Positions 21,355 through 63,941 of a stretch of 64,000 nt of DNA are shown here, piece after piece. The stretch is from assembly GCA_964573625.1 (NCBI GenBank), contig CAZNJU010000001.1:513050-577049 (forward strand). The letters are read 5' to 3'. Both the position numbers and the translations under genes were made by a program. The notes under the pieces were generated by a model. That model saw only the letters and a program-made list of their open reading frames with translations, had not been told where the DNA came from and ran no database searches. Numbering within the stretch: position 1 is the stretch's first letter; the number at the start of each line of letters is the position of its first letter. This DNA is from Candidatus Woesearchaeota archaeon. GTDB lineage: Archaea; Nanobdellota; Nanobdellia; Pacearchaeales; GW2011-AR1.

Positions 21355-21382
21355 ACCTCTCTGCGTTACTACATAAAAGAGC

Positions 21383-43232: not shown

Positions 43233-43360
43233 ATAAACTCCTAGTATATAGTTATAAACTAGCGATATATAAGCTTTATGGTTTACTTGAGTATTCATCT
43301 TTGTATTTATGATTAGAAAAGAATAAATAGACAGGATGAGTAAGAAACGCATAGCGTTTC

Positions 43361-44041: not shown

Positions 44042-45016
44042 ATGTCTCCAGGGCTCAAGTGTAAAGTTCAAGCCTATAATATTAATGTGCGAGTAAAGCG
44101 CCACCGAGATCTAGAAGGTGCGGATGTTTTATATCATGTCCTAAAAGAAATTAATGGATTCACCTACACTTCAACCGACTCTAGGCAGAATATACGAAGA
44201 AAGATAGGTGAGTTTGATTATGCGATGGAGTTTATAAATTTCCCAGATAAGGAAGATAATTTGACTAGAATAGACTTTAAATTTGGAAGGGAAACAAGAG
44301 AGTCATTTAGCTTAAAAGACAAAAATGGGCAAGCGTCGGTTTTAAAGCTTCCAGATGACTCAAATATTTGTTTTGATACGCATGGCTCGTTTATCTTGAG
44401 AAGATTAAAAAATCATTGGTGTTGTGTTTTATTACTCGAAAAACGCCATCATACAACGACTGGTTTGGCGAAGGTTATTGAATACATCGAGAAGGTTAAG
44501 GAAAAATATAGCCTTGAAGCTGACGCAATAGCACAGGAAGCAGATGTTATTAGAAAGATAAAGAGTACTAAAGATGTAAATGCTGCCATAATAAAAAATC
44601 AAAAACTTGATTTAGAAAAAGAGGATGGAAGCGGCACGATACTTGTAAAAAATCGAGAACGAAAGAAATATGAGGCAACTAGTGTGCGTATAAGACTTTC
44701 TGAAGGCAATAGCACTTGGGAAAGATTTGTTAATTTCGCGAAGGATTATCTAAGCATTAAAAGAGAACCTACAAATCAGGAGATACGTGCACTAATTGAT
44801 GACACAGAATTGGTACTTTTAAAAAAGACCATGGCGGATTCTGGAGAGTCTAATAAAATAGATTTATTTAAGGATTTGGTGCTCTTTAAGATGGATGTGC
44901 AACAGCGTCATTCTAGAGAATTAGATTCGGACGACTTTTTTAATAAGTTGTTCACTTTAGTAGATACCAAGACGCTAGATTCCATCTTTGATCTTTCAAG
45001 AAAGCTCTATGATTAA
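44042..45016 (+). CDS. hypothetical protein (island cargo)
   Basis: 324-aa ORF with no recognisable domain. Confidence 0.45.
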   Translation: MSPGLKCKVQAYNINVRVKRHRDLEGADVLYHVLKEINGFTYTSTDSRQNIRRKIGEFDYAMEFINFPDKEDNLTRIDFKFGRETRESFSLKDKNGQASVLKLPDDSNICFDTHGSFILRRLKNHWCCVLLLEKRHHTTTGLAKVIEYIEKVKEKYSLEADAIAQEADVIRKIKSTKDVNAAIIKNQKLDLEKEDGSGTILVKNRERKKYEATSVRIRLSEGNSTWERFVNFAKDYLSIKREPTNQEIRALIDDTELVLLKKTMADSGESNKIDLFKDLVLFKMDVQQRHSRELDSDDFFNKLFTLVDTKTLDSIFDLSRKLYD

Positions 45017-45454
45017 AAATAGATAAAATATACATTTAAAGATTCTGAGCATAGTGAATAGAATTAAAGCGAATAAAAACCAATATATCCAGACATGAGT
45101 TCCATTCGCAAGTGTGAAGATTAAGAGGCTTACAGTTAGAAGGAGGGTTATAAATGCCGTAGAAATTAAAGCATATAACATGTTTTTGTATTCTTTATGT
45201 TTTCTTAGTCTTGTTAATTCTTCTGAGTGCTCAGGATTGTATAGGAAAAGAAGTGAGAACGTTGTTAAGAGAAAACCTATCAAAATTCCTAAGAAACTTA
45301 TTGTTGATTCGTTTATATTGGCGAGAAGAGTTCCTACAAACCCGAATGAATTTCCAAATAAGACAAGGATCACAACAACGGCTATAGAAAAGATTAAATC
45401 AGCCAAATAAGTGGCATCCCCGTATTTTTTAATGAACCAATTAATTAAACTCAT
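44996..45454 (-). CDS. integral membrane protein
   Basis: 152 aa with four TM helices. Confidence 0.45.
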   Translation of the reverse strand: MSLINWFIKKYGDATYLADLIFSIAVVVILVLFGNSFGFVGTLLANINESTISFLGILIGFLLTTFSLLFLYNPEHSEELTRLRKHKEYKNMLYALISTAFITLLLTVSLLIFTLANGTHVWIYWFLFALILFTMLRIFKCIFYLFLIIELS

Positions 45455-45512
45455 ATTTTATTGAAATGTGCTTCCTATATATTAATTGTTATTCTACGAG
45501 ATATTTTGTTAA

Positions 45513-47081
45513 TTAGACCCAAATATACCTCTTCTGTATGTCCATAATAATCTGACCATTTGTATGCATCCAGTCAACGAGATGTTGCAGGTCGTAAAGG
45601 TCGGAGAAAAGCCCCGATCCGCTGACTGCCTCATAAATTTCTCTTAACGTCGGATTTTTAAGATTTCTTATGGCTTCTTGGACTACTGCAAATCGAGCAT
45701 CTGATTTAGTCCTCTTAAGTCTTGTCCAGGTTTCTTCGAACCTGTTATTTTCGATGAGCCCCGTAAAGTTATCTAAGATAATACCTCGTGCGCCTTCAAG
45801 ATCACTTTTGTCAACTCCTATCTTATTTGTTGCTCGCGCTAATGACTGCGCAAGTCGCTTTAAATTTTCTTGAGTTCGTGAAAGCATCCATCCAACCGTA
45901 GACTTTCGCTCATCTTCGTTTTTTATTAAGTCAGATAACACTACGTCGAAATCTTGGGCAATTTTCTGCGTAGTTCCTATATAATCTGTATTGCTTTCCG
46001 CAACGCTTGGATTTAACTGATGGGCATGCACGATTTGAATCCATAAGTCCTCATTCATGTCTTGTTTTACTCTTGCAAGATCAAGATCGTGTTGTTTTAG
46101 AGAGTCAATATTTTCTGGAAGAGTAACTTCTGTTGCCGTAAAGTTTTGAGCTAACTCTTTTAATATCTCTCGCGGTGTGCGGAGGGGAGTACTTAACGTT
46201 GAAAAGATAGAATATTCTCCTCCGAATCTCTTTCTATTTTCTAACTCATGAGCAAGGTAGCTATAAGCTGAATCATAAAAACTATTGAAATAGGTGTTCT
46301 GATTTTGAGGGCGTTCGGCTAACTGGAACTTTATTCCATCAAGGTAAGAGAAACTTGACCCAACAAAAGCTCTTTCAGGCGGAGTTATTGCTCGGTATTC
46401 AGGGGGAGCCATTAACTGTAGAGTCCTTACAAATTCTTGTGCAAAAAGGGTGTTATTTGCAAAAGAAGAGACTGAAATGCCTCCGACTGATCTCTGAACA
46501 TAGGGTGCACTGATTAAAGGACTTTGTAGGGAAAGAGCAAGAGATTTATCAATAGAAAAATAACGACTTAATATTTTCTGAGCAACGTTCTTCTCATAGT
46601 CTACATCAACGTATAGGAAGTCTGACTTCATTTCTTCCCAATCTTCAATGACGAGTGCTTTTACCACCATATTTTGACGCTCATTGGTGACGGTTATCTT
46701 TTTTGATTTTAGAATTCTGATTAAAGAGTACTCTTTTGGTTGTTTTTTCATATCATAAGAGAAGAGGCCTAAAACCAATGTAGAAGGGGCGTTTTGAATT
46801 GCTGAAAGACCAAAATAGTTATAATTTCCATAAATAGCAATCGCGCTTTGCCACTGTGGAGACAATTCAGATGGCAAGACATAGAGTTCTATTTCATTAA
46901 CAGATCCACCATCTCTAGCTTTAGAAAAAGTATCATGATACCAGGTTTCTACTTTCTTCATGTGCTTCTTCTCGTGTTTCAAAAAATCAATATTAACGTG
47001 CTCTCTTTGCCAGGGAAGAATTTTTCTTGTTTTTCTCCATGGATAGTACTCAGTCAGAGAAAGGTTAGGAAGTTTAGGCAT
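45513..47081 (-). CDS. large hypothetical protein (island cargo)
   Basis: 522-aa ORF with no recognisable domain. Confidence 0.5.
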   Translation of the reverse strand: MPKLPNLSLTEYYPWRKTRKILPWQREHVNIDFLKHEKKHMKKVETWYHDTFSKARDGGSVNEIELYVLPSELSPQWQSAIAIYGNYNYFGLSAIQNAPSTLVLGLFSYDMKKQPKEYSLIRILKSKKITVTNERQNMVVKALVIEDWEEMKSDFLYVDVDYEKNVAQKILSRYFSIDKSLALSLQSPLISAPYVQRSVGGISVSSFANNTLFAQEFVRTLQLMAPPEYRAITPPERAFVGSSFSYLDGIKFQLAERPQNQNTYFNSFYDSAYSYLAHELENRKRFGGEYSIFSTLSTPLRTPREILKELAQNFTATEVTLPENIDSLKQHDLDLARVKQDMNEDLWIQIVHAHQLNPSVAESNTDYIGTTQKIAQDFDVVLSDLIKNEDERKSTVGWMLSRTQENLKRLAQSLARATNKIGVDKSDLEGARGIILDNFTGLIENNRFEETWTRLKRTKSDARFAVVQEAIRNLKNPTLREIYEAVSGSGLFSDLYDLQHLVDWMHTNGQIIMDIQKRYIWV

Positions 47082-47155
47082 AAAACAAGGGAAGAGAGAT
47101 ACTTAATAAGAATTGTTATACTCTTTATTAGGCTGTACCGATAACTTTTCTAAAA

Positions 47156-47503
47156 TTATCGTTGAGATGCTCCCCAACTAAATATGAATAGCCCTGGTAT
47201 CCCTGCTGTGAAGCCGAAATTTTTCTTAAACTTATCCTTATTTTCTATAACATCTATTCCATCAGGGTTTATGTCTCTTATTAGAATGAAAGCTGTTTTT
47301 GTTGTACCCATTTGACCACTTACTTGTCCGTTTAATAGATTTTTACGAATTAGATACTCTAATGCAAAATGCACTCTGTCTCTTTGCCAGCCAGTTATTC
47401 TTTCTATGTCTTCAGTATGCAACTGTTCTTTTCCCTCGATTTTATTTTGATATATCCAAGCGAGAAGTTCGCCTGCATCTTTTTGTATTACCACAAAAAT
47501 CAA
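47156..47503 (-). CDS. hypothetical protein (possible winged-helix)
   Basis: 115-aa ORF. RDRVHFALEYLIRKNLL is recognition-helix-like. Confidence 0.35.
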   Translation of the reverse strand: MIFVVIQKDAGELLAWIYQNKIEGKEQLHTEDIERITGWQRDRVHFALEYLIRKNLLNGQVSGQMGTTKTAFILIRDINPDGIDVIENKDKFKKNFGFTAGIPGLFIFSWGASQR

Positions 47504-48303
47504 CTCAGAATTATATATTTAAGTCTTACTCAGCTAGCAGCTTTTCGGGCTAAACCGGTTAACAGAGGTCTTGAACGCATATTTGCTGATAGCCTTCCCG
47601 ATTGGTATTCAGATGCCCAAGATTCAGCGTACGTCCTACGTTGATCAGGAGTTAAGTCTTTAGGCATTGTATCATAAGCAGTTCTTAGAAAGGACTCAAC
47701 AGCTCTATCTTTTACGTCTATCCTCCCTACTTGTGCTTTAATGACAGAACAAAACCCTCGATAATCCATTTTGAATAGAACAAATTAGATAATTTAAGTC
47801 TTGTGGCTATGTCAAAAAATTTATTAACTGCAACTTCTCCACATTCTGATGTCTTCCGTAACTCTAGATGAAAATGCATTAGAGTCGCTCGTAAAATTAG
47901 TAACTGTAAAAAATCGTTTAGCTTCAGCACTAGTTTCGGCTCCGCACTCAATGGGAAATCGAATTGCTGAGGCTCGAGAAACTTATTCTGCAGGAATTGA
48001 GCAAAGTCTCGCACCTTACCGTAGTATCTCCGTTATCGATCAAGTAATACGAGAATATGAATCATTAGCAAATATGTCTGATAAAGCAATAATATCTACT
48101 TTCGGAGAGATATGCCTCACGGATTCAAATCACTAGATTTCTATCTCACGGGCATTGTTTTTTTTTGATCTTTAGTTAAACGTTAAGTATTTCAACCTTA
48201 AGCGATAGAATTATACATGGTAGAAGAAAGACAATCGTTAGAGTTGAAACTTTAACCAAATAATCACCACAAGATATATTAACAACTCCTGCTATGAATT
48301 GAC

Positions 48304-48618
48304 ATGAAACTCGGCGTAATTTGGGGTGTAGCAATTATTGTGTTGCTTCTAGCAGGTGTTTTTCTTATCTTGCGTCTGCCTCATGGACAAAATTTCATAC
48401 TATCGCAATCTCCTACTGATAACTCTGTCGCCAGTGATACGCGCGGCGCAGGATGGTGTCCATCCCGTCTACCTGTATGTTGTAAGTGTGTAGTATCTGG
48501 TGCGGAAGGATTCGGATGCTATAAAGCGGGAACCGTGTGCAGCAATCTTGTAGGACATGGTGTGTGTGAATCTTTCTCAGGCAACAATGGTGCGTGTATT
48601 CGAACATCCTCACAATAA
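48304..48618 (+). CDS. secreted cysteine-rich small protein (class III signal-like N-terminus)
   Basis: 104 aa with an N-terminus MKLGVIWGVAIIVLLLAGVFLIL, followed by a domain with 8 Cys and many Gly. Confidence 0.45.
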   Translation: MKLGVIWGVAIIVLLLAGVFLILRLPHGQNFILSQSPTDNSVASDTRGAGWCPSRLPVCCKCVVSGAEGFGCYKAGTVCSNLVGHGVCESFSGNNGACIRTSSQ

Positions 48619-48918
48619 ATAAGTTAGTCGTATAATATTTAAGCGCGCAAGCACTTCTGGGCATATACTTAAATTTTAGTGTTGGATGTTGCGGTGTCGA
48701 TAATTCTTACTTCTTTTTTATTATTCTCAGGTTGATGAGTCTGAACTCCCTTAGTGACGACGAAACGGGTAAGGGTGCCATCGTTTCTGCCTTATCCATT
48801 CGGCTCTGATTTTCTCTCGGAGCAAATAAAGCCGACAATCCATTTATGTCAGATAAAATTGGCAAAGTTAACGTTGCCCCCAATATTGCTGCAGGTACAG
48901 AGTATTGTCTTAGTTTAT

Positions 48919-49296
48919 TTATCGGTTTATTTTTAGAGACGCTAGATATTGTTTATAAAGATTATATCTCTCCGAAATTATTCCCTGGCTATAAGCTTTT
49001 TCTAATTTTTCAGAGGCTTTTATAACACTTCTTGCACTATGCGGATTAAACGAATAAAGTTCTTCATCATTATCTGCAATAATTACAAGGCGTTGCAAAC
49101 CCAAAAACTTCTTTATTTTATCTAGGGAGGTCTCTGAAACCATCTCAGCTGCACGTCTGCCATAAAACTCTAAATCAAGGTTTCTCGCTATTCCTCTTAA
49201 TTCAGCAGCTTCTCTATCATTTATTTGTCCACTAGCGCGACCTTCTTCGATAAGTTCAAGTCCTCCACCAATTTCATCTAATTTCGGTTTTGTCAT
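48919..49296 (-). CDS. hypothetical protein
   Basis: 125-aa ORF. Confidence 0.4.
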   Translation of the reverse strand: MTKPKLDEIGGGLELIEEGRASGQINDREAAELRGIARNLDLEFYGRRAAEMVSETSLDKIKKFLGLQRLVIIADNDEELYSFNPHSARSVIKASEKLEKAYSQGIISERYNLYKQYLASLKINR

Positions 49297-49388: not shown

Positions 49389-50138
49389 ATGGCTAAAGTT
49401 GAAAAGAGCCCAGAAGAGTATGGTTATCGATTTGTTAAGTGCGAACCCCCTATAAGGACCGGAAAAGAAAGTAACGCTCTTGCTCAGCGATGGTTAGAGA
49501 CTCAGGATCCTGCTCTGAAAGAACGGCTGGTGATAGGAAATCGTCGCTTTGTAGGTGCGCTAAGTGCACGATTTACATGCTTTCCGCCTATAATGCGTAG
49601 AGATTTAATCGGGGAAGGGTACGTTGGTCTTGTCAAAGCAATAAACAATTATGACGAAGGAGGATCATTTTCAAGTTATGCATTTAAACACATATTCGGA
49701 GGAATGATGGGGTATCTTGCTGCCAATAGAAGGCTGATTAATATTCCGTATCAATTTATTAAAGAAGCACGAGAGACAGGGAAATCTGCTGAAGAAATTG
49801 AGGATCTCGTTCTTAAGCAGGCTAAGAAAACAGATGAGGCACAATATTTCCTTATTGATGAAGTTAAACATACTCTTAGAGCTCCACAGGACTCAGAGGG
49901 AGAGAGACGCGAGCAGTTAGATTTTCTAAGAGAGGCATTCAGTGTTTTATCCCTAAACAAGAATGAACGATTTGTGATTCAAACCAGATATCTTCAAAAT
50001 CGACACGAGGTTCCTACCTTTAGACAGTTAGGAAAAGCAATGAGATTAACAGGAGGACGAGTACAGCAAATACATGCAAGAGCTCTTCGTAAAATAAGAT
50101 GGTATATGGAGAAAAAAAGATATTGCGAAGCTAGCTAG
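49389..50138 (+). CDS. sigma-70 family-like protein (regions 2 and 4)
   Basis: 249 aa. DLIGEGYVGLVKAINNYDEGGSFSSYAFKHIFGGMMGYLAANRRLINIP aligns to sigma-70 region 2.1-2.4 (DLIQEGNIGLMKAVEKFD...FSTYATWWIRQAI...IRIP). The C-terminal FRQLGKAMRLTGGRVQQIHARALRKIR aligns to the region 4.2 HTH (LEEVG..[20 protein letters not shown]). Confidence 0.65.
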   Translation: MAKVEKSPEEYGYRFVKCEPPIRTGKESNALAQRWLETQDPALKERLVIGNRRFVGALSARFTCFPPIMRRDLIGEGYVGLVKAINNYDEGGSFSSYAFKHIFGGMMGYLAANRRLINIPYQFIKEARETGKSAEEIEDLVLKQAKKTDEAQYFLIDEVKHTLRAPQDSEGERREQLDFLREAFSVLSLNKNERFVIQTRYLQNRHEVPTFRQLGKAMRLTGGRVQQIHARALRKIRWYMEKKRYCEAS

Positions 50139-50149
50139 TTAATTAGAGT

Positions 50150-50692
50150 TTATTGACTTAATGTCTTTAGAACATCGGCTTTCGTAATAACTCCCTTGAG
50201 CTTACCTAGAGAACTAACCAATACAAGAGGATAAAATTTGAGTAAAGAAACAATAGCAGATAGCTCTGTAGTGTCTGCAATAATAGGGGGGCTTTCGACC
50301 ATTATATCGAAGGCCTTTTTTGAGCGTGCTGAATCCACGTTTTGCTCTAATATAGCAGACTCGGTAATGAGTCCTAAGACACTATAGTTTTCAATAACGG
50401 GGGCTTGAGAAATGTTATGTTTAGTAAGAAGTTCAATTATTTTTTGTAATGGTGAGTTTCTCGGTATATAGATGATCCCTTCATGCATAATATCTTTAGC
50501 TTTCTTTTCTTCATGTTTCGCTAGATTAGTGATTGCTTCTTCTATTTTTTTAACATAAGAATAGGTAGGGTCAAGCTTGCCCGCCTCTATTTTAGCTATC
50601 ATAGACTGGCTTATGCCTGCTCTTTTGGCAAATTCGTGCTGCGTTAAGTCAAGTTGTTTACGTATTTTCTTTAGATGAGTTATATCAAACAT
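50150..50692 (-). CDS. XRE-family HTH + tandem CBS-domain transcriptional regulator
   Basis: 180 aa. An N-terminal HTH (LTQHEFAKRAGISQSMIAKIEAG) is followed by two CBS repeats. It is divergent from the downstream plus-strand operon. Confidence 0.75.
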   Translation of the reverse strand: MFDITHLKKIRKQLDLTQHEFAKRAGISQSMIAKIEAGKLDPTYSYVKKIEEAITNLAKHEEKKAKDIMHEGIIYIPRNSPLQKIIELLTKHNISQAPVIENYSVLGLITESAILEQNVDSARSKKAFDIMVESPPIIADTTELSAIVSLLKFYPLVLVSSLGKLKGVITKADVLKTLSQ

Positions 50693-50780
50693 AATTATTT
50701 TAAAAAAAGCACCTATATAAATATTCCTATAAGAATAAATTAATCAAGATATTATTTATACATCTGCCCCATATAAGGAT

Positions 50781-51122
50781 ATGGAATTGTTTAAGGATAT
50801 ATCCCCTCTGCCAATTATAAAGGGGCGGCAAGGAAATATTGTAGCAATGGAAATTCGAACTCGCTCGGGGGCAGAGACTCTCTTATTTCAAGAACTAACT
50901 TCAAAAGAGCGTTTAGGAAGAAAATTAATAGGTACGCCTGTTGGAAAAAATCTTGAACATTGTGTCTATCTGGGATTGAAATATCATCCAGGTTTTCCAG
51001 AACAAGCGGCTGCTTTTTATATTGACCAGACACCCGATCCTCTTTTAGAGCAATTAAGGCAGTTTCAACCAGGATCTGTAAAAATTGAATTTTATGCGAG
51101 GGTGGCATCAAAATATGAATAA
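50781..51122 (+). CDS. hypothetical protein (operon gene 1)
   Basis: 113-aa ORF. Confidence 0.45.
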   Translation: MELFKDISPLPIIKGRQGNIVAMEIRTRSGAETLLFQELTSKERLGRKLIGTPVGKNLEHCVYLGLKYHPGFPEQAAAFYIDQTPDPLLEQLRQFQPGSVKIEFYARVASKYE

Positions 51123-51462
51123 TAGAGAATTAAGCGAAAAGGTTTATTTATTTGGTCAAGAAGCTAAAAAGAAAAATTCTTTCTTGGGAGCGCGCATTAT
51201 GGATTCGGTTTCTCGATTACTTGCATATCCCGGTCAACTTGAAGGACTTATTGAGCCTGAAGTAGCTCAGATACGTGGCTTACGGTCAGTTGCCCCATAC
51301 ATCACGAGAGTTATGCAAGGAGAGTCGTATGAATCTATTCTACAGGATATCCCTGCACGTTCTAGACCAACAAGACGAACCTACTCTCATGAAAGAAATG
51401 ACCAAAAAGAATGGGACGGATCCTGGGACAATAGTGTTCGAATCAGAGAAGAGGAGAGCTAA
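51115..51462 (+). CDS. hypothetical protein (operon gene 2)
   Basis: The track ORF is 51085..51462. The likely start is the Met at 51115 (MNNRELSEK...), which overlaps the upstream stop by 8 nt (ATGAATAA). Confidence 0.4.
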   Translation: MNNRELSEKVYLFGQEAKKKNSFLGARIMDSVSRLLAYPGQLEGLIEPEVAQIRGLRSVAPYITRVMQGESYESILQDIPARSRPTRRTYSHERNDQKEWDGSWDNSVRIREEES

Positions 51463-51549
51463 ATCTTACCTCGAGAGCAAAAAGTTATCCCTTAAAAGAA
51501 GCAAAAACTTAAAAAGGCCAATGAGGGGGTTTTATAAGGAAGCACTAAA

Positions 51550-52377
51550 ATGGAAAATACAATTAGCGAACTAAATGATCGTAAAGATAGTCTAGCTCTT
51601 TCTAACTATTCTTCATGGGCAAGTACTAGAGATATAGCGCGTGATCATAAGTTGCGGGACGAAATTGCTGATTTAGCAGAAAAAGGAAGGAATCGAAAAA
51701 ATCGTTTTAAAAAATTACAGGGGTTAAAACTTAGAGACTATAAATATTACAATGAGATAATTTCTTTTATTAAAGAGACTCGACATAAGTATGATCAAAT
51801 AGGAGACGAAAAGTCACTTGAAGGCTTAAAAAGTAACGGTCTTTCTTTTGTGAATCGTTTTAGAGCCAATAAAAAAGAACTTCTAGCAAGAGGCATGGAG
51901 TCGAAAAAAGAATTACAATATTGTAAAAGCTATGTAGAATGGGGATATTTCTTAGGTAGCCTTTATGGAAGTAAATTCATTCCCATGAATATTGGCGATT
52001 TCTTAAATGTTATTGGGCCTGAAGGTATTCTGAGCCCTAGAAAAATGAGTGAACGACTCAATCAAGATCGGGCACTATTTGAAATTAAGAAAAAAGAAAT
52101 TAGAGTTTCGTTCGAGTCACGTTTCGACGATTATATCGAGTACATGATGAGTATAAATCCTCAAGGAAAATCTCCTATAGCGCGAGTCAGCGCATATAAT
52201 GCGTTAGAAGAGGCGGTTACTAAATATCAAATTAACTCTTCTAACTTAGATTCTCATCTTAAAATTGCTTTGCAACATATTGATTGGGGATTGCGTGAAG
52301 GGTATAAATCATTACAGCCGAGGTCAATAAATGAAGTAAAAACTCGTGAAATAATTAGGGGAGAACTTATAGCATAA
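51550..52377 (+). CDS. hypothetical protein (operon gene 3)
   Basis: 275-aa ORF. Confidence 0.45.
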   Translation: MENTISELNDRKDSLALSNYSSWASTRDIARDHKLRDEIADLAEKGRNRKNRFKKLQGLKLRDYKYYNEIISFIKETRHKYDQIGDEKSLEGLKSNGLSFVNRFRANKKELLARGMESKKELQYCKSYVEWGYFLGSLYGSKFIPMNIGDFLNVIGPEGILSPRKMSERLNQDRALFEIKKKEIRVSFESRFDDYIEYMMSINPQGKSPIARVSAYNALEEAVTKYQINSSNLDSHLKIALQHIDWGLREGYKSLQPRSINEVKTREIIRGELIA

Positions 52378-52814
52378 TGGTAAATCAACAAAATTTTAGA
52401 AAAAACGTCTTGACCGTAGCTCAAAGACACTTGTCATATATACTAACAGACGAAAAACTCGGCCTTAATTCAAGAAATTATAATAAAAAGAGAGCCTTAG
52501 AGTTTTACGCCTCCGCTTTAACTGCTGCAGGGATGCCTGAGGCGATTCAGGACTTATACGATTTGGAAAGTAAGGCAAAAGTTAGTGTCGCCTCCTCAAA
52601 ATATAAATTGCAGAATGTCTTTCATGTTCTAGGCATTAAAGATAATGTGACTATTTTTGAAGTTCTTGAATTTACCTCAAGTCAAGTAGAAAGAAGAAAT
52701 TCTCCTCGAGGAATGGAATTTATGGTAAACGAAAATGCAGTAGAAAAGATTATCGATTTTCTTAATAAAAAATCTAAAATGGACTATACAAATTTAGGAG
52801 GTAGTGGAAAATGA
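52377..52814 (+). CDS. hypothetical protein (operon gene 4)
   Basis: 145-aa ORF with a TAATG overlap to the upstream gene. Confidence 0.45.
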   Translation: MVNQQNFRKNVLTVAQRHLSYILTDEKLGLNSRNYNKKRALEFYASALTAAGMPEAIQDLYDLESKAKVSVASSKYKLQNVFHVLGIKDNVTIFEVLEFTSSQVERRNSPRGMEFMVNENAVEKIIDFLNKKSKMDYTNLGGSGK

Positions 52815-53623
52815 TTCATGGAAATATTTTAGATATGTTTTCTCCAGAAGATTTGACTGATAAGTCTCAGGGTAAAAATGCTAATGAAAGATTAGCTCCC
52901 CGTTATCGACGTAGTTACTCGGCAAGTCCAGTGAATATTCTTATTAGGGCAGAAGAAAGTGATCATTTGAGGAACTTAACTGTAAATCTTAGAGACTTCT
53001 TGCGTGAAAACATGAATATGGCCCAATATGGATTTCTACATAAATTACTCGGCAAGAATTGGAGCGAGAGATTACGCCTTCCCCTAGAATTTAGGGATAT
53101 GGCTTGTGAGGAATTTATGGTTTTTATCAATGAACGCTTGGGGGAAATACAGGAAAAAGTTGAAATCTTACGCGAACATTACGATAATACTGGATTTGAC
53201 GGGCGTTCAGTCCCAATACAGGAATTCATTCAAGTTCCGTTTAATATGGCTTCGAGGGATAAAATTCTCAAAACCTATGAAGACGTTCGCCAGGGAAAGA
53301 CGTCACGATACCCTTATGCTTTCTTCCACCCTAGAAATACAAGAGTGCCAAAGATTCTTACCCGCCATTTAGTCGATGATATCTTAGGTTTACCTCATAC
53401 GGAATCCCTTCCAGACAAGTTAAGACCCTCTCACTTTAGTGAATATCAATTAGGAGGAATGCTAGGGCAGTATTTTCGCGGTAATATCGAAAGAGCATTA
53501 CAACACGCGTACAGTCTAGAAGAATTCCCTCAATTGTATAGAAGAGGATATCAAACAAGGGATGTGCTGCACGAGGTATTCCAAGGCCTCAATAATAAAC
53601 TACGGGAAAAAAAGAATGAATAA
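52811..53623 (+). CDS. hypothetical protein (operon gene 5)
   Basis: 270-aa ORF with an ATGA overlap to the upstream gene. Confidence 0.45.
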   Translation: MIHGNILDMFSPEDLTDKSQGKNANERLAPRYRRSYSASPVNILIRAEESDHLRNLTVNLRDFLRENMNMAQYGFLHKLLGKNWSERLRLPLEFRDMACEEFMVFINERLGEIQEKVEILREHYDNTGFDGRSVPIQEFIQVPFNMASRDKILKTYEDVRQGKTSRYPYAFFHPRNTRVPKILTRHLVDDILGLPHTESLPDKLRPSHFSEYQLGGMLGQYFRGNIERALQHAYSLEEFPQLYRRGYQTRDVLHEVFQGLNNKLREKKNE

Positions 53624-56600
53624 TCAACAACTACTTGCTCGATTTACAATTCCTGAGCTTAAAGCAGCAGCAGACCTAAAGAAATATACAGTTAACTTGA
53701 AGAAAAAATTTAAGAGGGCTGAAAAGAAAAACTCAACAAAGCTTAGAGAAATAGCTACGCTGGAAATTGAAGAAGAAATAAAAAGAAGGAAAAGCGAACC
53801 GGATTATAATCCTTTTTTTGACGATGTATCTACCACAGAGATAATTTCAGAATTAGAAGAAAGACTTCTTAAGCCAGATTCTGTAACGGGTAGACTTAAT
53901 TTGAAGGCAATTCACTCTTTCATCCAAGGGTCATATTATGAAGGCAAAATTTCCCCCAAATTGGAACATCATCACCCTCGCTCAGAATATAGGGCCAAGT
54001 CTAAATCTCTTGTTTCTAGTAATGCAGTAGAAGATGATTTACAAAAAGTGATAGATGAACAGAGAAAAGATGCTCGGTTAGCGAACAATCCTTTTTTAGC
54101 TTATTTTATCGCCAGGGATGTCCAAGGATCAAATATATGGAATAAATTTGGTTTAAGGGGTTTGTTGAGAGAAGTCAAAGAGCGCACAGGATTGGCACCA
54201 GTCTCTTGGAAAGGGGGGGCCATGTCCTATGACGGATTTTTTACGCTTCAAGAGATCTTAACTAAAGACATAAAATCTGGAGAATTCAAGTATTTTGTTC
54301 CTCAAGGAGTTTATTTGATGGCGCAAGACTTACAAAAAAGAGGAACAAAACTTAATGTTTCTGTAACCTCTTTCAATTTAAATTCAAGGAAAAAACTAGC
54401 TGCTCTTTTAGAAGAAGATGAGTCTAAGATAAAAAGAGATTGGAAACCGCACAGATTTGACATGACTTTAGACGCAATAGAAACTTCTCTTGATTTTATG
54501 AGGAGGAAATATCAAGAGAATCCAGATGCATTTTTCGAAAGATACGGCTCTCCTCAAGGAACTAATAATCTAGTTGAGGATATGAAGCCAGAACGCGAAT
54601 TTAAAACTAATCTTAGAAAAGTTCATACTCTGCTTGGAGATGGCGAATCTCTTTCCAAAATGCTTGACATAGAAGATGAGCGATTTAAGACGAAATGGAA
54701 CCCTTCGGTAATCCAGATATCTCCTTCTGAGCTAGAGGTTGTAAGGGATATTTTGCATCGTTCATTGAATGAGGATAAAAATAAATTTTATGCCGTTTAT
54801 GGTTCTGCTTTCGGCACTGTTATTCTCAGTAAGGAGCTTGCAACAAAGGGATTGGATATCAGTCCCGCAAGATTATCTTCTGTTTTGGTTAATACGGATA
54901 AAGCTTCAAGCATTCTTGGAATTAGGGATGATGAATTTGAAAAAAGGTGGAATGTCAAAGAGTTTAGCGATGAATATCCTATTTTCGATACCACAATGAA
55001 AAGACTTAAAGAGGCTTATAATAAAGATCCCGATACATTCTTTTCTCGTTATGGTTGTGATATAGGGGCCTTCAATGTCGCTCAAGACCTCAAAGGGCAA
55101 GGGGGTGAAAAGTCAATTAAAATGCAAGTTGTTTCCAGAATTATAAGGGAAGGACAACTTATTTCACGTATTTTAGACATTAATGATGATCGGTTCAAGA
55201 CTCACTGGCACCCATCACAAATAGTTCCAGATTACGATGATGCCGAAAAAGTATTAGAATTTATGCGCGCCAAGCACAAAAAAAACCCAGATGCGTTTTT
55301 TGGAAGGTATGGTTCTAAACTCGGGCTCTATTATTTGATGAAAGATTTAAGCGACGTACCTGAATTGAGAACGAAACCAGATCAAAATTTAAAAGGTATT
55401 GCTTATTCCGGAGAAAGATTGTCCCGTTTACTTGGAATTAAAGATACAAGATTTTCAAGCGCATGGCATCCTCGAAGTCTAACGCTTAATTCACAGCAAG
55501 TCGATCAAGTTGGAGAATTTCTTAAGGACAAATATGATTCTAATCCTAAATCTTTCTTTAAACGATACGGAGCAGAAGACGGGCTTTTACAACTATCGCG
55601 AGATTTGGAAGAAGAGCAAGGCGTTAGATTATCTTCAAGTAGGTTAGGAAATATACTTATGGATGTCGAGGCTACACAACAGCTAATCGGAATAAATGAC
55701 CCTAATTTTGATAGTAAATGGAATATTCGTTCAATTCAGGTTAAAAACGGTATCCCCGATCAAGTTGGAGAATTTCTGAGAACTCAGTATGATCAAGATC
55801 CAACACGCTTCTTTGTGCGCTATGGTGGAAAGACTGGCCAAGTTTTAATGTTAGAAGATCTTCGTAAAACTGGCATTAAAATCCCCCTTATGCAATTAGG
55901 GTCACTAATTGGAAAGTCAAGTCTTGTTTCTAGATTAACTGGCATCCCCGAGTCTGAATTTGAAGGACGTTGGAGAAGCAGGCATGTTGGAATGAAAAGA
56001 ACTCATATTTCAAGAATTACAGATATATTAACAAATGCTTATCACGAAGATCCAGAGTTGTTTTTCGAAAGATACGGTGGGAAAGAAGGAATAGTCAACT
56101 TAGCCGAGCGGCTCAAAGAAGACGATGTTCATCCCAATTTACACTTCATATCAAATCTCATTGGAGATCCAGAGACCGTACAGGAGTTAATGAAGGTTGA
56201 AGATGATAGATTCCTTGGTGAATGGGCTCCTAGGAAGGTCAGTATATCTTCGCGACAATTAAGACCTACTATTGATTTCTTACGACGTTCCTATTTCGCT
56301 GACAGTAAAAGATTCTTTGATCGATACGGGTCTAGGGCAGGAATCTATAATTTGGCAATTGATTTAAATGAAGGGGGCATGTTGGCAAGTGGAGATATGG
56401 AGAGAATATACGATTTAGTTGCTCGGCCTTCCATTCAAGAAGTTTTAGGTATTCGCGATCCGAAATTTGGTGAAAAGTGGAATCCTGCTAACATTCCTCT
56501 CAATCTCAATGAGTTCCGTGCTATTTCTACTCATCTTAAGGAGCAATTCGATAAAAATCCAGATACCTTTTTCGATTATTATAGAAAGCCTTTAAGATCG

Positions 56601-57440
56601 ATTATATTAGGTAAGGAAGCTGAAGCCTTAGGTATCAATGAGAATCCTCCTGTTTTTTCAGTAATTTTAAATGATGGTAAATTTGTTGGAGAATTAGTGG
56701 GATCTGCTGATAAACGATTTGCAGACACCTGGCCTCGTAAAGCTTATGTAATGCTACAGGGAGCTTATCCGACCATGAAGAATATGGAGCAATCTATTGG
56801 CCAAGGATTAGAAAGGATGGCTGAAAGTTGCAGTTTACCTTCTATGGGTAGTCCATTAGGTAAAGATGAAAGAGAATATCTCGCTTTACGATATGGTCTA
56901 CGCATGGTTAATGAGAACACAGCACACCATGTTGTTGAATTGTATGCAGGTGCCAAACAAAAAGCAATTAAGAAAAATATTAAAGAAATACTTACACAAG
57001 ACGCCAAAGATATGAGAGAGTTATCTTCTATTAAAAACTTCAAAGAAGTTTCAGAATTTGGTGATGAGGCATTTACTAATTTAGCAGGACATTTGCTTTA
57101 TAGTTTTGACCCGTCTATTAGAGCAGCTGCAGGACATAAAATTCTTGAACTATATACTCCTACCTTTCAACGAATAATTGCTAATCGCAACATTCCAGAT
57201 ATCTCAAAAGGATATGATACGTTTAGTAAATACTGTGAAAACTTTGATATGTATGCTATTAAGTTTGGAGGGCTAAAGGAGAGAAAGCAGGTATGCCCCG
57301 TACCCTTGCCTGGTAGAGTATACAGTATTATTCAATCTATTGGAAGTGGTCGCTACTATGATTGGAGCGATAATGTGATGAGATCTCTAGATGTTAACGA
57401 TGATAAAGAAGGAGGTTATCTTCACGAAATAATTAGTTAA
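53616..57440 (+). CDS. giant tandem-repeat protein (about ten ~85-aa repeats + unique C-terminal domain)
   Basis: The track ORF is 53562..57440 (1292 aa). The likely start is the Met at 53616 (MNNQQLL...), an ATGAATAA overlap like gene 2. Repeats recur with the core pattern [LI]G[IV]xDxxFxxxWxP ...(~40 aa)... NPDxFFxRYGxxxG. Confidence 0.6.
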   Translation: MNNQQLLARFTIPELKAAADLKKYTVNLKKKFKRAEKKNSTKLREIATLEIEEEIKRRKSEPDYNPFFDDVSTTEIISELEERLLKPDSVTGRLNLKAIHSFIQGSYYEGKISPKLEHHHPRSEYRAKSKSLVSSNAVEDDLQKVIDEQRKDARLANNPFLAYFIARDVQGSNIWNKFGLRGLLREVKERTGLAPVSWKGGAMSYDGFFTLQEILTKDIKSGEFKYFVPQGVYLMAQDLQKRGTKLNVSVTSFNLNSRKKLAALLEEDESKIKRDWKPHRFDMTLDAIETSLDFMRRKYQENPDAFFERYGSPQGTNNLVEDMKPEREFKTNLRKVHTLLGDGESLSKMLDIEDERFKTKWNPSVIQISPSELEVVRDILHRSLNEDKNKFYAVYGSAFGTVILSKELATKGLDISPARLSSVLVNTDKASSILGIRDDEFEKRWNVKEFSDEYPIFDTTMKRLKEAYNKDPDTFFSRYGCDIGAFNVAQDLKGQGGEKSIKMQVVSRIIREGQLISRILDINDDRFKTHWHPSQIVPDYDDAEKVLEFMRAKHKKNPDAFFGRYGSKLGLYYLMKDLSDVPELRTKPDQNLKGIAYSGERLSRLLGIKDTRFSSAWHPRSLTLNSQQVDQVGEFLKDKYDSNPKSFFKRYGAEDGLLQLSRDLEEEQGVRLSSSRLGNILMDVEATQQLIGINDPNFDSKWNIRSIQVKNGIPDQVGEFLRTQYDQDPTRFFVRYGGKTGQVLMLEDLRKTGIKIPLMQLGSLIGKSSLVSRLTGIPESEFEGRWRSRHVGMKRTHISRITDILTNAYHEDPELFFERYGGKEGIVNLAERLKEDDVHPNLHFISNLIGDPETVQELMKVEDDRFLGEWAPRKVSISSRQLRPTIDFLRRSYFADSKRFFDRYGSRAGIYNLAIDLNEGGMLASGDMERIYDLVARPSIQEVLGIRDPKFGEKWNPANIPLNLNEFRAISTHLKEQFDKNPDTFFDYYRKPLRSIILGKEAEALGINENPPVFSVILNDGKFVGELVGSADKRFADTWPRKAYVMLQGAYPTMKNMEQSIGQGLERMAESCSLPSMGSPLGKDEREYLALRYGLRMVNENTAHHVVELYAGAKQKAIKKNIKEILTQDAKDMRELSSIKNFKEVSEFGDEAFTNLAGHLLYSFDPSIRAAAGHKILELYTPTFQRIIANRNIPDISKGYDTFSKYCENFDMYAIKFGGLKERKQVCPVPLPGRVYSIIQSIGSGRYYDWSDNVMRSLDVNDDKEGGYLHEIIS
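54430..56950 (+). repeat. intragenic tandem repeat array (~255-bp period, ~10 copies, diverged)
   Basis: The protein-level repeats (e.g. LDIEDERFKTKWNP, LGIRDDEFEKRWN, LDINDDRFKTHWHP, LGIKDTRFSSAWHP, IGINDPNFDSKWN, TGIPESEFEGRWR, MKVEDDRFLGEWAP, LGIRDPKFGEKWNP, VGSADKRFADTWP) map at ~250-260-bp spacing. They are diverged at the DNA level. Confidence 0.6.
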
Positions 57441-57441
57441 T

Positions 57442-57972
57442 ATGTCAAAAAAACCTAAAAGTCTTAGACGTCAAGTGGTTGAACAATATTTTTCTTACAT
57501 TGAAGGAGACCAGACGTTACAACAAGGAGCATTTAATAAAGCGATTGCTGAAGGCGCAACTCTATTCCTTGAAATAGGAAGTTTATACAGAGATTCCTCT
57601 CTAGCAGAATATATCATGGGAAGACGTCCAATGGAAACGACTGCGAATCAATCGTATTCGCCGACCCCCGATGCGGCAATAGGGCAGGAGTCAAGGCAAG
57701 TCGTTTCAAGAAAGAAGCCTCCTCGAACTCACACTGCAAAAAAAGTATGGGTCGAGGTTGTGCAAGAAAAGGAACTATTAGCTGAGCCAGGATTTAATTC
57801 ACTGGAAGGAGTTATGAAAAGACTGGGAATAGATAGAAAAATACTGACACGAATTCTTGAAGAAACTCATTTCTGCATTGAACAACGCACATACGGTGGA
57901 AGACAACTTGAAGGTATTTCCGACTCAACGTATGAACAAGTCAGGAAATATGTAAGAAGAACACGCTCGTAA
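57442..57972 (+). CDS. hypothetical protein (operon gene 7)
   Basis: 176-aa ORF starting 1 nt after the giant gene stop. Confidence 0.45.
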   Translation: MSKKPKSLRRQVVEQYFSYIEGDQTLQQGAFNKAIAEGATLFLEIGSLYRDSSLAEYIMGRRPMETTANQSYSPTPDAAIGQESRQVVSRKKPPRTHTAKKVWVEVVQEKELLAEPGFNSLEGVMKRLGIDRKILTRILEETHFCIEQRTYGGRQLEGISDSTYEQVRKYVRRTRS

Positions 57973-58170: not shown

Positions 58171-58575
58171 TCAGGGCAGGTCTCCATTATAAGATATAAG
58201 CTCCTCGAGTTTTAAGAAAGCTTTCAATAAACCTTCCCTAATGTGTTTTGGCAAACCGGTGCTTTTTTCCACATACCTTTTGTTCTGAGCCATAGCAATA
58301 ATCGCTCTTCGGTCGCCTTGTTCACCCTTACCTTCCTTCCAAACATATATGTCCCTATAGCTTTCTAGACTATAAACCGATAGATAACTTCCATCCATAT
58401 AAAAACGTAAAGCTTTATCGTTTTGAAATTCATAAGCTAACTCTTCTGAGTCTCCAAAGAGCGGATGCTGAGTTATTTTAATGGTTACTTCTGGAAGTTG
58501 GTGTGAGAACGTTTGTATTCTTTTATCAGATGTTGAATCATCTTTATTTTCGGTCCAACGGTAAGAATTTTCCAT
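58171..58575 (-). CDS. hypothetical protein
   Basis: 134-aa ORF. Confidence 0.4.
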   Translation of the reverse strand: MENSYRWTENKDDSTSDKRIQTFSHQLPEVTIKITQHPLFGDSEELAYEFQNDKALRFYMDGSYLSVYSLESYRDIYVWKEGKGEQGDRRAIIAMAQNKRYVEKSTGLPKHIREGLLKAFLKLEELISYNGDLP

Positions 58576-58585
58576 AGAAGGTTAC

Positions 58586-59326
58586 TTAACGAGAACCTCG
58601 CAAAACACCTTCCATTAAAACAAAATAATCTTCATATCCTTCTGCTGATTTAGCAAAGAGTGCTTTCGCCTCTCCTAAGGCACCATAGACTTGTTCTTGG
58701 GCAAGTCTTCCATGAAAAGGCTCTAATCTCCAAGACTTAAATCTGTCTAGACCCAGAGGTCCTGTAAAGTCTTGTTGAAAAGGCCTTACATATTTTCCCA
58801 ACCTTCCCAGAGAATCAACCTCTTTAACAATCTCCCTCTCTTCGTTCGCAATAAATCTTGAAAGAGAAAAATAAGCGGAGTCCCCATTATTCCTAAAAAG
58901 ATGCTTTTGTTGGAAAACCTCAGCATCTATTAATACATTATCTGCTAAAGAGAGCTTATCACGATTCAGCCAGAATCTGCAGAAAATCCTCTGTTCAAGG
59001 CTGGAAATAGTGGATGGGTTGACTTTTTCATTTTTATCCCCCTCATAAAAAGTCATTTCGTTTAACCGCCTCTTTTCCTTTCCGTCAATTAAAACACAAG
59101 GATTAACCATCTCAGGAAGATAAATGGTTAAATTTCCATAAAGCTTAGAATGAGTATCAAACTCCGCGGAGATGTTCCATTTTTGTTTTTCTGCAACATC
59201 GAAGAAAGTCCCAATTCTTAATTCTTCCAGCGCATTTTTAAGCAAACGTTCCTCTTCAAAGGTTTTAGTATCTTTCTCTAAATGAGCAGGATTTTTTCTT
59301 TTGAAGATGGCAATTCTTTCTTCCAT
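58586..59326 (-). CDS. hypothetical protein
   Basis: 246-aa ORF. Confidence 0.4.
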   Translation of the reverse strand: MEERIAIFKRKNPAHLEKDTKTFEEERLLKNALEELRIGTFFDVAEKQKWNISAEFDTHSKLYGNLTIYLPEMVNPCVLIDGKEKRRLNEMTFYEGDKNEKVNPSTISSLEQRIFCRFWLNRDKLSLADNVLIDAEVFQQKHLFRNNGDSAYFSLSRFIANEEREIVKEVDSLGRLGKYVRPFQQDFTGPLGLDRFKSWRLEPFHGRLAQEQVYGALGEAKALFAKSAEGYEDYFVLMEGVLRGSR

Positions 59327-61868: not shown

Positions 61869-63941
61869 TTAGTCTTTTTTGAATAAGTGCGTGATTGCAT
61901 CTGCCACACTCCTTTTCGTATAGGTTATACCTAATTCATTATAGTACGGAGATAAGTTCCTATCTGTTACCACGAAAAACCAGTTTTTACTATAACCTTT
62001 GTTAAGATTTCTTATTTTCTCCATTAATTTTTTCCTGTCTTTACTGTAAACTTTACCTGTTTCAACTTCAATTGCGTATTGCTGGCCGCCGGCTTCAAAA
62101 ACAATGTCTGGTTTTACCGTTTCATATAAAGATATCTTGTTTGTGAAATTCTTTAGATATTCTACTAACTCATACGTAAGAAAGCAATGACTCTCAGACT
62201 CATTTCTTCGCGGTTTGATCAGGTAACGTGCTTTTTTATTATTAAGATCAAAGAATGTTCTTTCTTGATATCCCTTTGAGCGCAAGTATTTGATTTCGTC
62301 CAGATTAAGAGAGCTGACTACATGGTGGCGTCTTGACTCATCAATAGCGATGTTCACTTTTCGTTGAATGGCTTTCTTTGTTTCGGTAGGTTGTCGCAAG
62401 AGCTCATCAGGTTTGGTAGTAATGTATTCATGTTCTTCATCTGATGCCACAATACGCAGCTCTGAATGTTCATCATCCATAAGCAGAATGCCTTCACCTA
62501 CGGCAGCAGTAAGCAAAAATGCCCGTTCAGTCTCGCTCAAGGAGAATGTTTCTTTGATGTTTCTAATAACGGCTGGTTTTTGTCTTAGAAGAATGGTATA
62601 AGAACTATTGGCTAAGACAGATTTACCTGCTTCGGTTCCCAACATGCCTTCGACTTCCTGATTAATCAAAAACAGTGCTAAATTGAATTTTCTACACGTT
62701 TTAACGATCTCAAATATGTACGAAGCGTCTTCAGCCCGACTAAGGAGCGACCACGCTTCATCAATGACGAGAAACTTACGCTCTAACGTGCTTTTCATTT
62801 TCATATATACATAATCTAATACGAGAAACATCATAACAGGCTTCACTTGCTTAGGCATATTGCCGATATCAAAGGAAACGAGCGGATTGTCAAAATTGAT
62901 GTTAGTATGCGTATTGAGAAAAGAGAAAACACCTGTAGTGTACAGTGAAAGACGATTAATGAGACTGCGTATGGTGGGTTTTTCGATAGTCGTTGCTTTT
63001 CGTTCTAAGGATTCTAAGGAATACAGTATATCTTCCATAATCGGCGGCTCATTATTCCAGCTTTCAGGATCATTAACAAAGATGCCTTTCTTTTCATACG
63101 CCGTTGTTAGAGCACGATCGATAAACGTCTTCTGGGGTTCAGTAAGCTCACCAAGCATGAGCGGCATCAAATCCATCAAGGCAAGACGTTTTTCAGGATA
63201 TTCGTGACCCATTAAGTCCAGAGGATTGATAATAGTCTCAGAAGTTCGACTCAAATCAATACGTTGCCCTTTAAACTGCTTTACCAGCGCGTTATACTCT
63301 CCTTGCGGATCAATAACCATTACTTTTGTACCATTCAACAGATGCCGAGCAATCATGAGCTTTGACAGATAGCTTTTACCGGAGCCAGAGCTAGCCAAAC
63401 ACAGACCGTTCGGATTACTGAGGGAAAAAATGTCTTTAATAATCGGAATGTTATTTTTGTTAAGGCCGAACCAAATACCGGATAGATCTGCTGATAAGAA
63501 GGAAGAGGTAAAGGGAAAGAACGCCGATAACGCGTTCGTAGGCACGTTTCTACGCATTTTAAGATGGTTCATGGCTAATGGAGCACAGGACTTAAGAGCT
63601 TGTAACATTCTGAATGAAGGACGTCTCGGAATAATCAGAAGCGAATTCAGTTCTGATTCTACTTTTCGTGTTAGAAGATCCAATTCTGCTTTCGTTGTGG
63701 CTCTGCAATTAATATAGAGACTTACATTGAAGAGCTTCTCTACACCTTTCTGAAGGTTGGTAAGCACTCCTTTGGTGTCTTTGTATTTGATTTCTAAACT
63801 CGGATTAAGTATTCCTTTGGATTTAGCAGAATACAAATCTGCACGTTGTTTTTGAAGTTCTTTGTTAATATCCACCATCATCGTTTCAATATCATATGGC
63901 TCAATATGAATCGAAAGATCAAAATTACCTGAGCTACTCAC
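61869..63941 (-). CDS. VirB4/TraC/CedB-like ATPase fused to a C-terminal PD-(D/E)xK nuclease-like domain
   Basis: 690 aa with Walker A LASSGSGKSY, Walker B KFLVIDEAWSLL, and the VirB4-type C-terminal motif QEVEGML. The last ~110 aa carry PDIVFE...AIEVETGK (D...E.K nuclease-like). The start codon appears to be GTG. Confidence 0.55.
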   Translation of the reverse strand: MSSSGNFDLSIHIEPYDIETMMVDINKELQKQRADLYSAKSKGILNPSLEIKYKDTKGVLTNLQKGVEKLFNVSLYINCRATTKAELDLLTRKVESELNSLLIIPRRPSFRMLQALKSCAPLAMNHLKMRRNVPTNALSAFFPFTSSFLSADLSGIWFGLNKNNIPIIKDIFSLSNPNGLCLASSGSGKSYLSKLMIARHLLNGTKVMVIDPQGEYNALVKQFKGQRIDLSRTSETIINPLDLMGHEYPEKRLALMDLMPLMLGELTEPQKTFIDRALTTAYEKKGIFVNDPESWNNEPPIMEDILYSLESLERKATTIEKPTIRSLINRLSLYTTGVFSFLNTHTNINFDNPLVSFDIGNMPKQVKPVMMFLVLDYVYMKMKSTLERKFLVIDEAWSLLSRAEDASYIFEIVKTCRKFNLALFLINQEVEGMLGTEAGKSVLANSSYTILLRQKPAVIRNIKETFSLSETERAFLLTAAVGEGILLMDDEHSELRIVASDEEHEYITTKPDELLRQPTETKKAIQRKVNIAIDESRRHHVVSSLNLDEIKYLRSKGYQERTFFDLNNKKARYLIKPRRNESESHCFLTYELVEYLKNFTNKISLYETVKPDIVFEAGGQQYAIEVETGKVYSKDRKKLMEKIRNLNKGYSKNWFFVVTDRNLSPYYNELGITYTKRSVADAITHLFKKD

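Follow-up and report, generated by a model that had tools for sequence, protein, structure and literature searches.

A contig from a Candidatus Woesearchaeota archaeon (GenBank assembly GCA_964573625.1, contig CAZNJU010000001.1) was analysed over a stretch of 64,000 nucleotides (nt; positions 513,050 to 577,049 of the forward strand), referred to below as the window. A first-pass annotation of this sequence had singled out seven plus-strand open reading frames (ORFs), here named g1 to g7, as one operon of undescribed proteins centred on a giant repeat protein, g6, and had attached to it a divergent regulator and an adjacent sigma-like gene. All seven ORFs are present, and a coherent, coupled block of undescribed proteins does surround the giant repeat protein, so that this reading was right in spirit; it erred in the extent of the unit and in the regulatory link. 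The conserved unit, examined here, is the five-gene cassette g3-g4-g5-g6-g7 (51550-57972, plus strand; Table 1), and the C-terminal part of g6 resembles bacterial sigma factors. The window has a G+C content of about 38% and carries archaeal markers, namely a threonyl-tRNA synthetase with the archaea-specific editing domain and archaeal-type glutamyl- and tryptophanyl-tRNA synthetases.

A conserved five-gene cassette

The order g3 to g7 is kept in at least six other loci at protein identities of 25-50%, which bears out the check on gene order in metagenomic relatives that the first-pass annotation had itself proposed. The full order is found at the loci labelled L001, L004/L005/L006, L007, L012 and L016, and g6-g7 only at L013. 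On a Hainich groundwater contig the orthologs of g3 to g7 lie in the same order, with identities of 40, 39, 50, 44 and 33%, respectively. In the distant loci L009 and L018 the g5 and g6 pair is kept and the rest of the cassette differs: at L009 the position of g3/g4 is taken by a 638-residue protein with a Fis-type helix-turn-helix (HTH; HTH_8) and other HTH-like matches, and at L018 an uncharacterised protein of 721 residues sits between g5 and g6. These loci were found via contig look-ups and one genome scan that used a five-sequence alignment as query; a scan of metagenome contigs added one new locus, L016. The carriers, several genomes from at least three assemblies, are mostly labelled Candidatus Woesearchaeota, Nanoarchaeota or Nanoarchaeia, with two labelled uncultured Methanosarcinales archaeon. 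The cassette is known so far only from DPANN archaea of the Woesearchaeota/Nanoarchaeota type.

Within the cassette the junctions are tight: g3 and g4 overlap by 1 nt (TAATG), g4 and g5 by 4 nt (ATGA) and g5 and g6 by 8 nt (ATGAATAA), and a single nucleotide separates g6 from g7 (TAAtATG). With spacings of -1, -4, -8 and +1 nt, all four lie within the range of translational coupling, and the 87-nt gap between g2 and g3 lies outside it. Across seven loci the spacing is between -11 and +2 nt at 18 of 21 junctions, the remaining three being -26, +18 and +150 nt. Since such tight spacing recurs at only 25-50% protein identity, the coupling is not a matter of chance, and the five genes are predicted to be translated in coupled fashion. 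The claim that all seven genes overlap or abut accordingly stands for g3 to g7 and, depending on the start chosen, for g1/g2, and fails at g2/g3, which neither overlap nor abut. The ATGAATAA overlap, said to occur at two junctions, is present at g5/g6; at g1/g2 it exists, again over 8 nt, only if g2 starts at the ATG at 51115, and there are alternative in-frame starts at 51085 (TTG) and 51094 (ATG), of which a public gene call takes the latter. A single seven-gene operon is therefore not upheld, as g1 and g2 are orphan ORFs on the far side of the gap. TATA-like strings 20-40 nt before the start, in an A/T-rich upstream region, accompany every g3 ortholog, which counts for little in an AT-rich genome, and a scan for bacterial-type promoters and terminators gave no more than the shuffle expectation, as expected for an archaeon.

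Relatives of this cassette are rare. An exhaustive search with HMMER among 1.84 billion representative proteins returned 34 relatives of g6, of which 13 are full-length (1,068-1,401 residues). A word-indexed homolog search found for g6 the query and one relative, on the Hainich groundwater contig, and for g5 the query alone; the profile version of this search brought no gain over the plain one. No product of g1 to g7 has a match in Pfam, NCBIfam, PHROGs or PADLOC at curated thresholds. At that level the statement that none of the seven shows a recognisable domain is accurate, but deeper analysis brought out the sigma-like module of g6. A literature search found no description of the g6 protein, its repeat or the cassette, and the named NCBI records of g5 orthologs read "hypothetical protein".

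Table 1. Features at the cassette locus, in window coordinates
Feature	Position	Strand	Basis or remark
Sigma-70 family gene, 249 aa, neighbour only	49389-50138	+	Pfam Sigma70_r2 + Sigma70_r4
XRE-type HTH + CBS-pair regulator, 180 aa, divergent from g1	50150-50692	-	Pfam
g1, orphan ORF, 113 aa	50781-51122	+	singleton cluster; no family match
g2, orphan ORF, 115 aa	51115-51462	+	no family match; no homolog
Gap g2-g3	51463-51549	+	87 nt, A/T-rich; likely (predicted) site of the cassette promoter
g3, 275 aa, isoelectric point (pI) 9.4, first cassette gene	51550-52377	+	orthologs at L001, L004/L005, L007, L012, L016
g4, 145 aa, pI 9.4	52377-52814	+	orthologs and fusions
g5, 270 aa, most conserved partner, all-helical, weakly DUF4046-like	52811-53623	+	
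g6, giant protein, putative scaffold, 1,274 aa	53616-57440	+	ORF; 13 full-length relatives
g6 N-terminal basic region, aa 1-225, pI 9.4	53616-54290	+	
g6 repeat array, aa 226-1040	54291-56735	+	repeat-profile hmmsearch
g6 HTH module, aa 1062-1135	56799-57020	+	region-4-like signature (tentative)
g6 sigma region-2-like helical domain, aa 1150-1244	57063-57347	+	begins at GxLLYSFDxxxR
g6 C-terminal tail, SLDxxxxxEGxxxHEIIS, sigma region 3.2 linker-like	57378-57437	+	conserved across family
g7, 176 aa, pI 9.5	57442-57972	+	orthologs at L001, L004, L012, L013, L016, partly L007

The giant protein and its partners

The array of g6 consists of one partial and nine full helical repeats of about 85 residues each (consensus FLxxxYxxDxxxFFxRYGSxxGxxxLxxDL...LLGIxDxRFxxxW), followed by a non-repeat C-terminal module (residues 1041-1274). 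The repeats were modelled at a predicted local distance difference test (pLDDT) value of about 90, and the units are predicted to stack into an elongated structure whose sequence is near neutral (pI 6.8). There are 9-10 repeats in all 13 full-length relatives. For every repeat of g6 the best match in the related proteins P0002 and P0015 is one-to-one and occupies the equivalent position, which also applies to eight of nine repeats in P0017, and the mean score of a repeat unit is 219 between matching positions vs 101 between non-matching ones. Because the count is fixed and the units are orthologous one to one, the array is old and fixed, with each unit separately constrained, and differs from a recently expanding repeat; a fixed repeat count combined with individual unit identity is unusual among repeat proteins. 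The repeat profile gave chance-level matches only, both against Pfam and against PDB sequences. Derivation of the 85-residue repeat from a duplicated sigma region 4 was considered and rejected (hhalign E 0.08, out of register). The repeat and g5 appear from these comparisons to be new protein families with no known match, and would be so even if the cassette had no role in transcription.

All five cassette proteins are soluble and helical, with pI values of 8.5-9.5; no hydrophobic segment, membrane or secretion feature was detected in them, and no enzyme-like domain in Pfam, PHROGs, NCBIfam and PADLOC scans. The protein encoded by g3 has no relative in PDB or Pfam and is fused with that of g4 into a single protein at L007 (403 residues) and L012 (480 residues). 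Compared with the g6 repeat profile, g4 gave E 0.013-0.027 (0.008 with hhalign), none of them significant, and it may hold one degenerate copy of the g6-type repeat. For g5 of the window there was no match to Pfam DUF4046 (PF13255) at E <= 1, the L004 ortholog scored 16.3 bits (E 0.015) against a cutoff of 22.8, and precomputed annotations give PF13255 for g5 and several orthologs; to our knowledge DUF4046 has no known function, and a literature search found no mention of it. In g7 the N-terminal helices are conserved, and a variable basic linker leads to an HTH-like module at the C-terminus; the protein has a weak match to Pfam HTH_Tnp_1_2 (E 0.025). Profiles of g3, g5 and g7 retrieved from the PDB sequences weak, unrelated matches (myoglobin, E 0.28; a Stn1 winged helix, E 0.03; a designed protein, E 0.3). 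Mutual paralogy of the five proteins was rejected after an all-against-all hhalign comparison (best E 0.007).

The sigma-like module and possible roles of the cassette

The similarity of the g6 C-terminal module to sigma factors emerges from several signals. Residues 872-1274 were modelled with AlphaFold from 12 family sequences at a pLDDT of 83.4 and a predicted template modelling score of 0.80. When a profile of 19 members of the module family was compared with PDB sequences, the top three matches were all SigA (E 0.03-0.09); the segment 'LP..L...E.eYL.LR.GL' aligns to SigA regions 4.1/4.2 and the tail 'iSLDtg..ee' to 'PISLETPIGKEED' of region 3.2. In NCBIfam searches made member by member, 12 of the 19 weakly matched families are sigma factors, the best being RpoS (E 0.0026), and g6 itself matches SigE region 4 with E 0.011 as an isolated domain and E 0.1 as a whole protein. 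Several relatives carry further elements of this kind: in P0023 the shared domain is followed immediately by a Sigma70_r3-like stretch (E 0.002), P0022 has a Sigma70_r4_2-like HTH (E 1.6e-5) and a motif, 'ADIAQEVFLKAVASYNPY', resembling those of extracytoplasmic function (ECF) sigma factors, and P0024 has an XRE-type HTH at its N-terminus. The motif GxLLYSFDxxxR is the most conserved of the g6 family. The same 'LLYSFD'-type sigma-like domain is present in the distant relatives P0046 (1632 residues), P0032 (2452 residues) and P0039 (658 residues), where it is combined with few or zero repeats and with unrelated parts (seemingly hydrophobic stretches, a radical-SAM-like region and very long C-terminal extensions).

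On the basis of these data, we tentatively favour the view that g3 to g7 encode a lineage-specific DNA- or transcription-associated complex built on a sigma-derived scaffold. The five products would most likely assemble into one soluble complex on g6, which would combine a basic N-terminus, the fixed repeat array and, at the C-terminus, a module that stems from a bacterial sigma-70-family protein, the last with a putative region-4-like HTH, a region-2-like domain and a region-3.2-like tail, in that order. The g3/g4, g5 and g7 proteins, which are basic and all-helical and carry HTH-like elements, may dock on individual g6 repeats. Conserved coupling, the g3-g4 fusions, the individual character of the repeats and the small, basic, HTH-rich partners together suggest one stoichiometric complex. 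A connection with DNA, and most plausibly with transcription, is indicated by the sigma-derived module and by the HTH domains that relatives have gained repeatedly. The complex would probably bind DNA and act in or on transcription beside the archaeal-type RNA polymerase, with the sigma-derived module supplying contact with DNA, with the polymerase or with both. Of the three roles that the first-pass annotation had suggested, that of a nucleic-acid-handling complex is the most plausible, the function as such being predicted. In a more elaborate version, which we consider unlikely, one DPANN lineage has made a bacterial sigma module into the part that reads DNA or docks on the polymerase within a giant factor of five subunits, which acts together with an RNA polymerase of the archaeal, Pol II-like type; the ten individually conserved repeats would then hold a specific partner or DNA site each. 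If true, it would represent a hybrid bacterial/archaeal mechanism of initiation or regulation with no described precedent. Should the cassette act on transcription at all, parts for bacterial promoter recognition would have been reused by an archaeal transcription system.

Several results weigh against this proposal. Taken singly, none of the sigma sequence tests is significant. An hhalign comparison of the sigma-like family profile with E. coli RpoE, whose query sequence agrees with PDB entry 1or7, placed regions 2.1-2.3 in the expected register at a non-significant E of 0.05, and that of the module profile with the neighbouring sigma-70 protein gave E 0.2-0.3, likewise not significant. Neither Sigma70_r2 nor TIGR02937 matches g6, Sigma70_r2 being found in one of 19 family members (E 0.093), and a Foldseek search with the whole C-terminal model of g6 returned nothing below E = 1. 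The region-4-like element lies N-terminal to the region-2-like domain in 17 of 17 aligned members that cover both. Regions 2.3-2.4 of real sigma factors melt and read the -10 element; the equivalent stretch of the g6 family, after the 'FD.Y' motif, is poorly conserved, at a divergence at which residue equivalence cannot be fixed. In addition, as neither g5 nor the repeat has any match, most of the mass of the cassette is functionally blank; the binding of DNA by g3 to g7 and their assembly into a complex are both predicted properties, and we know of no sigma docking to archaeal RNA polymerase, which is the type the host possesses. No region-3 domain was identified in g6 itself, as judged from spacing. 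The sigma case nevertheless stands because its sub-significant signals agree with each other and with the fold search: we regard descent of the module from sigma region 2 as probable, and the assignment of region 4 as an even call.

The surroundings of the cassette vary from locus to locus, and the flanking genes are ordinary archaeal ones. In relatives they include RIO1, a KH/PNO1-like gene, Topo VI-B, exosome Rrp41/42, RpoK, Rpo1, an intein-containing RtcB, deoxyhypusine synthase and diphthamide synthase. The polymerase genes Rpo1 (L014, 2-2269) and RpoK/Rpb6 (L009, 1865-2077) are located within 5-7 kb of the giant gene, which may be coincidence. At L016 an intein that contains a LAGLIDADG homing-endonuclease domain splits the RtcB RNA ligase gene (18895-21729). 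L004 (6048-6782) and L009 (11788-12513) both encode, immediately downstream of the cassette, an uncharacterised protein of 241-244 residues that is 82% identical between them; recent transfer or very strong constraint is suggested, because the giant proteins of the same two loci share about 30% identity.

Such chromosomal housekeeping surroundings would also suit a scaffold for nucleoid organisation or DNA segregation, in which the array and the HTH partners coat, bridge or position DNA and the sigma-like module is just a DNA-binding element without a part in transcription initiation. In favour of it are the basic, all-helical and HTH-rich character of the proteins, in which no enzyme-like domain was detected, a constant number of repeats such as a structural ruler would have, and the poor conservation of the regions that sigma factors use for melting. 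We consider this explanation unlikely, however, as the family is very rare even within DPANN archaea and a core role in chromatin should be more widely distributed, no ATPase or partition-type partner is present, and the kept set of sigma-type domains points to transcription. A scaffold for proteins only, serving as assembly platform or adaptor, with repeats that bind clients and a sigma-like domain that is an evolutionary relic, would be in keeping with the near-neutral repeat region and the degenerate sigma signatures, but the partners and the termini of g6 are basic and HTH-type domains have repeatedly been fused or inserted in relatives, and we judge it quite unlikely.

It had further been proposed that the whole seven-gene block is under ligand control. 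The two genes concerned are what they were taken for: the sigma-like gene that precedes the block is a true sigma-70 member (TIGR02937, 69.8 bits, cutoff 42.9), canonical with regions 2 and 4, and the divergent regulator has HTH_3 (55.7 bits, cutoff 23) and CBS (61.3 bits, cutoff 24) matches above the Pfam cutoffs, with two CBS stretches. A seven-gene operon switched by a ligand through the XRE-CBS regulator, perhaps jointly with the sigma-70 protein encoded next to it, would accord with the divergent layout and its shared 88-nt intergenic region (50693-50780), with the fact that CBS pairs commonly bind adenosyl ligands, and with the fusion of an XRE-type HTH to the giant protein in P0024. The idea is improbable: the regulator, g1 and g2 have no counterpart in any related locus, and at none of the other loci does the sigma-70 gene have one within 10 kb of the cassette, so that ligand control rests solely on adjacency in one genome; moreover, g2 and g3 lie on opposite sides of the gap, and the g3 orthologs all have upstream regions of their own. 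The regulator, the sigma-70 gene, g1 and g2 appear from this distribution to be genome-specific neighbours outside the system. The runs of ORFs at 44042-49296 and 58171-59326 (324, 152, 522, 115, 125, 134 and 246 residues, plus smaller ones) have neither a family match nor a homolog in any related locus.

On the minus strand a gene for a VirB4/TraG-P-loop/HerA-type ATPase (61869-63941) runs off the end of the window; the last 110 or so residues of the protein contain a PD-(D/E)xK-like nuclease motif ('PDIVFE...AIEVETGK'). Its ortholog at L001 (935-5502), 64% identical, is preceded by a TrbC/VirB2-like pilin gene, and the two kinds of gene suggest a type IV-like apparatus for transfer of DNA or protein in these DPANN archaea. 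We have weighed whether the giant protein could be an effector that such a system delivers into a bacterial partner, there to engage its RNA polymerase. The ATPase is 4 kb away and, at L001, lies upstream of the cassette beside the pilin gene, and it is only in combination with a bacterial polymerase that a sigma domain makes sense biochemically. But VirB4 lies near the cassette in two loci only, the window and L001, which may share this neighbourhood by descent, given the 64% identity of their VirB4 proteins, and was not found in the available sequence, up to 10 kb on either side, at L004, L007, L009, L012, L016 and L018; as the cassette proteins also have no secretion signal or hydrophobic segment, delivery to a host is very improbable.

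Upstream in the window, a HEPN gene and a nucleotidyltransferase gene that overlap by 4 nt (42148-43352, minus strand) resemble a HEPN/MNT toxin-antitoxin pair, and a further MntA-like nucleotidyltransferase is encoded at 29967-30911 (plus strand). An ORF of 413 residues at 40646-41887 (plus strand) matches tyrosine recombinases weakly (E 1.9e-4, short of the Pfam cutoff) and may lie at the boundary of an integrated element spanning the uncharacterised genes downstream of it. An anti-virus defence system, a role also raised in the first-pass annotation, or mobile-element cargo would accord with the large block of unknown genes, its variable flanks, and the HEPN/nucleotidyltransferase pair and weak integrase-like gene 8-10 kb upstream. 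Either is hardly credible, since g1 to g7 have no PADLOC match at E <= 0.1 and none in PHROGs, no nuclease, ATPase or other effector-type domain was detected, IMG/VR viral contigs hold no relative of g6 or g5, and near the related loci there are housekeeping flanks and no integrase families. The cassette has no link to viruses or defence systems.

Comparison with known systems

In its repeat array g6 recalls alpha-solenoid scaffolds and modular binders (armadillo/HEAT, mTERF, PPR, TALE), with which it shares tandem helical units predicted to form an elongated stack, each with its own conserved identity. In contrast to their units of 30-45 residues, those of g6 have 85 residues and about six helices, and no profile or fold match to such proteins was obtained.

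MzaA of the bacterial MZA anti-phage system likewise has a sigma-type domain inside a larger protein of a multi-gene cassette, and both it and g6 are presumed to act outside ordinary promoter selection. The weak match to MzaA, however, comes from the neighbouring 249-residue sigma gene only and not from g6, the cassette g3 to g7 is without PADLOC match, and MZA is bacterial.

Further parallels are the group 4 (ECF) and group 3 sigma-70 factors of bacteria, such as E. coli sigma-E, M. tuberculosis SigK and B. subtilis SigE, to which g6 is similar in its 'L..L...E.eYL.LR.GL' HTH (regions 4.1/4.2) and its region 3.2-like 'SLD...E' tail. In size g6 exceeds them about 5-7-fold, and its sigma-like part is preceded by an array of ten repeat units. 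Unlike them, it has its region-4-like element before region 2 with no region 3 identified and regions 2.3/2.4 not conserved, falls below every curated sigma cutoff and resides in an archaeal host.

The lineage itself offers the last comparison. Sigma-70 genes are common among Woesearchaeota, and neither an anti-sigma partner nor a mechanism or role is known for them in these cells, in which transcription is initiated with TBP, TFB and TFE (PMC8204110); the canonical homologs form protein family fam00359 (Castelle et al. 2021, PMC8204110). They share with g6 the lineage and the presence of bacterial-type sigma domains beside those archaeal factors, and the window itself has one such gene, 3.5 kb upstream of g6. 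These homologs are of ordinary size and recognised by standard models, whereas g6 is unrecognised by them, comes with four dedicated partner genes and is not detectably close to the neighbouring sigma protein (hhalign E 0.2-0.3). Sigma derivation is in itself of a known kind, and what is new in g6 is the repeat family, the permuted domain order, the dedicated partners and the archaeal host. The cassette represents a second, far more derived use of sigma parts in the Woesearchaeota lineage and bears on the part that sigma-like proteins play in archaea, whose cells lack a bacterial RNA polymerase; with its putative sigma-derived module, conserved repeat scaffold and four dedicated partners, it provides a concrete test object for the role of sigma-70 in Woesearchaeota.

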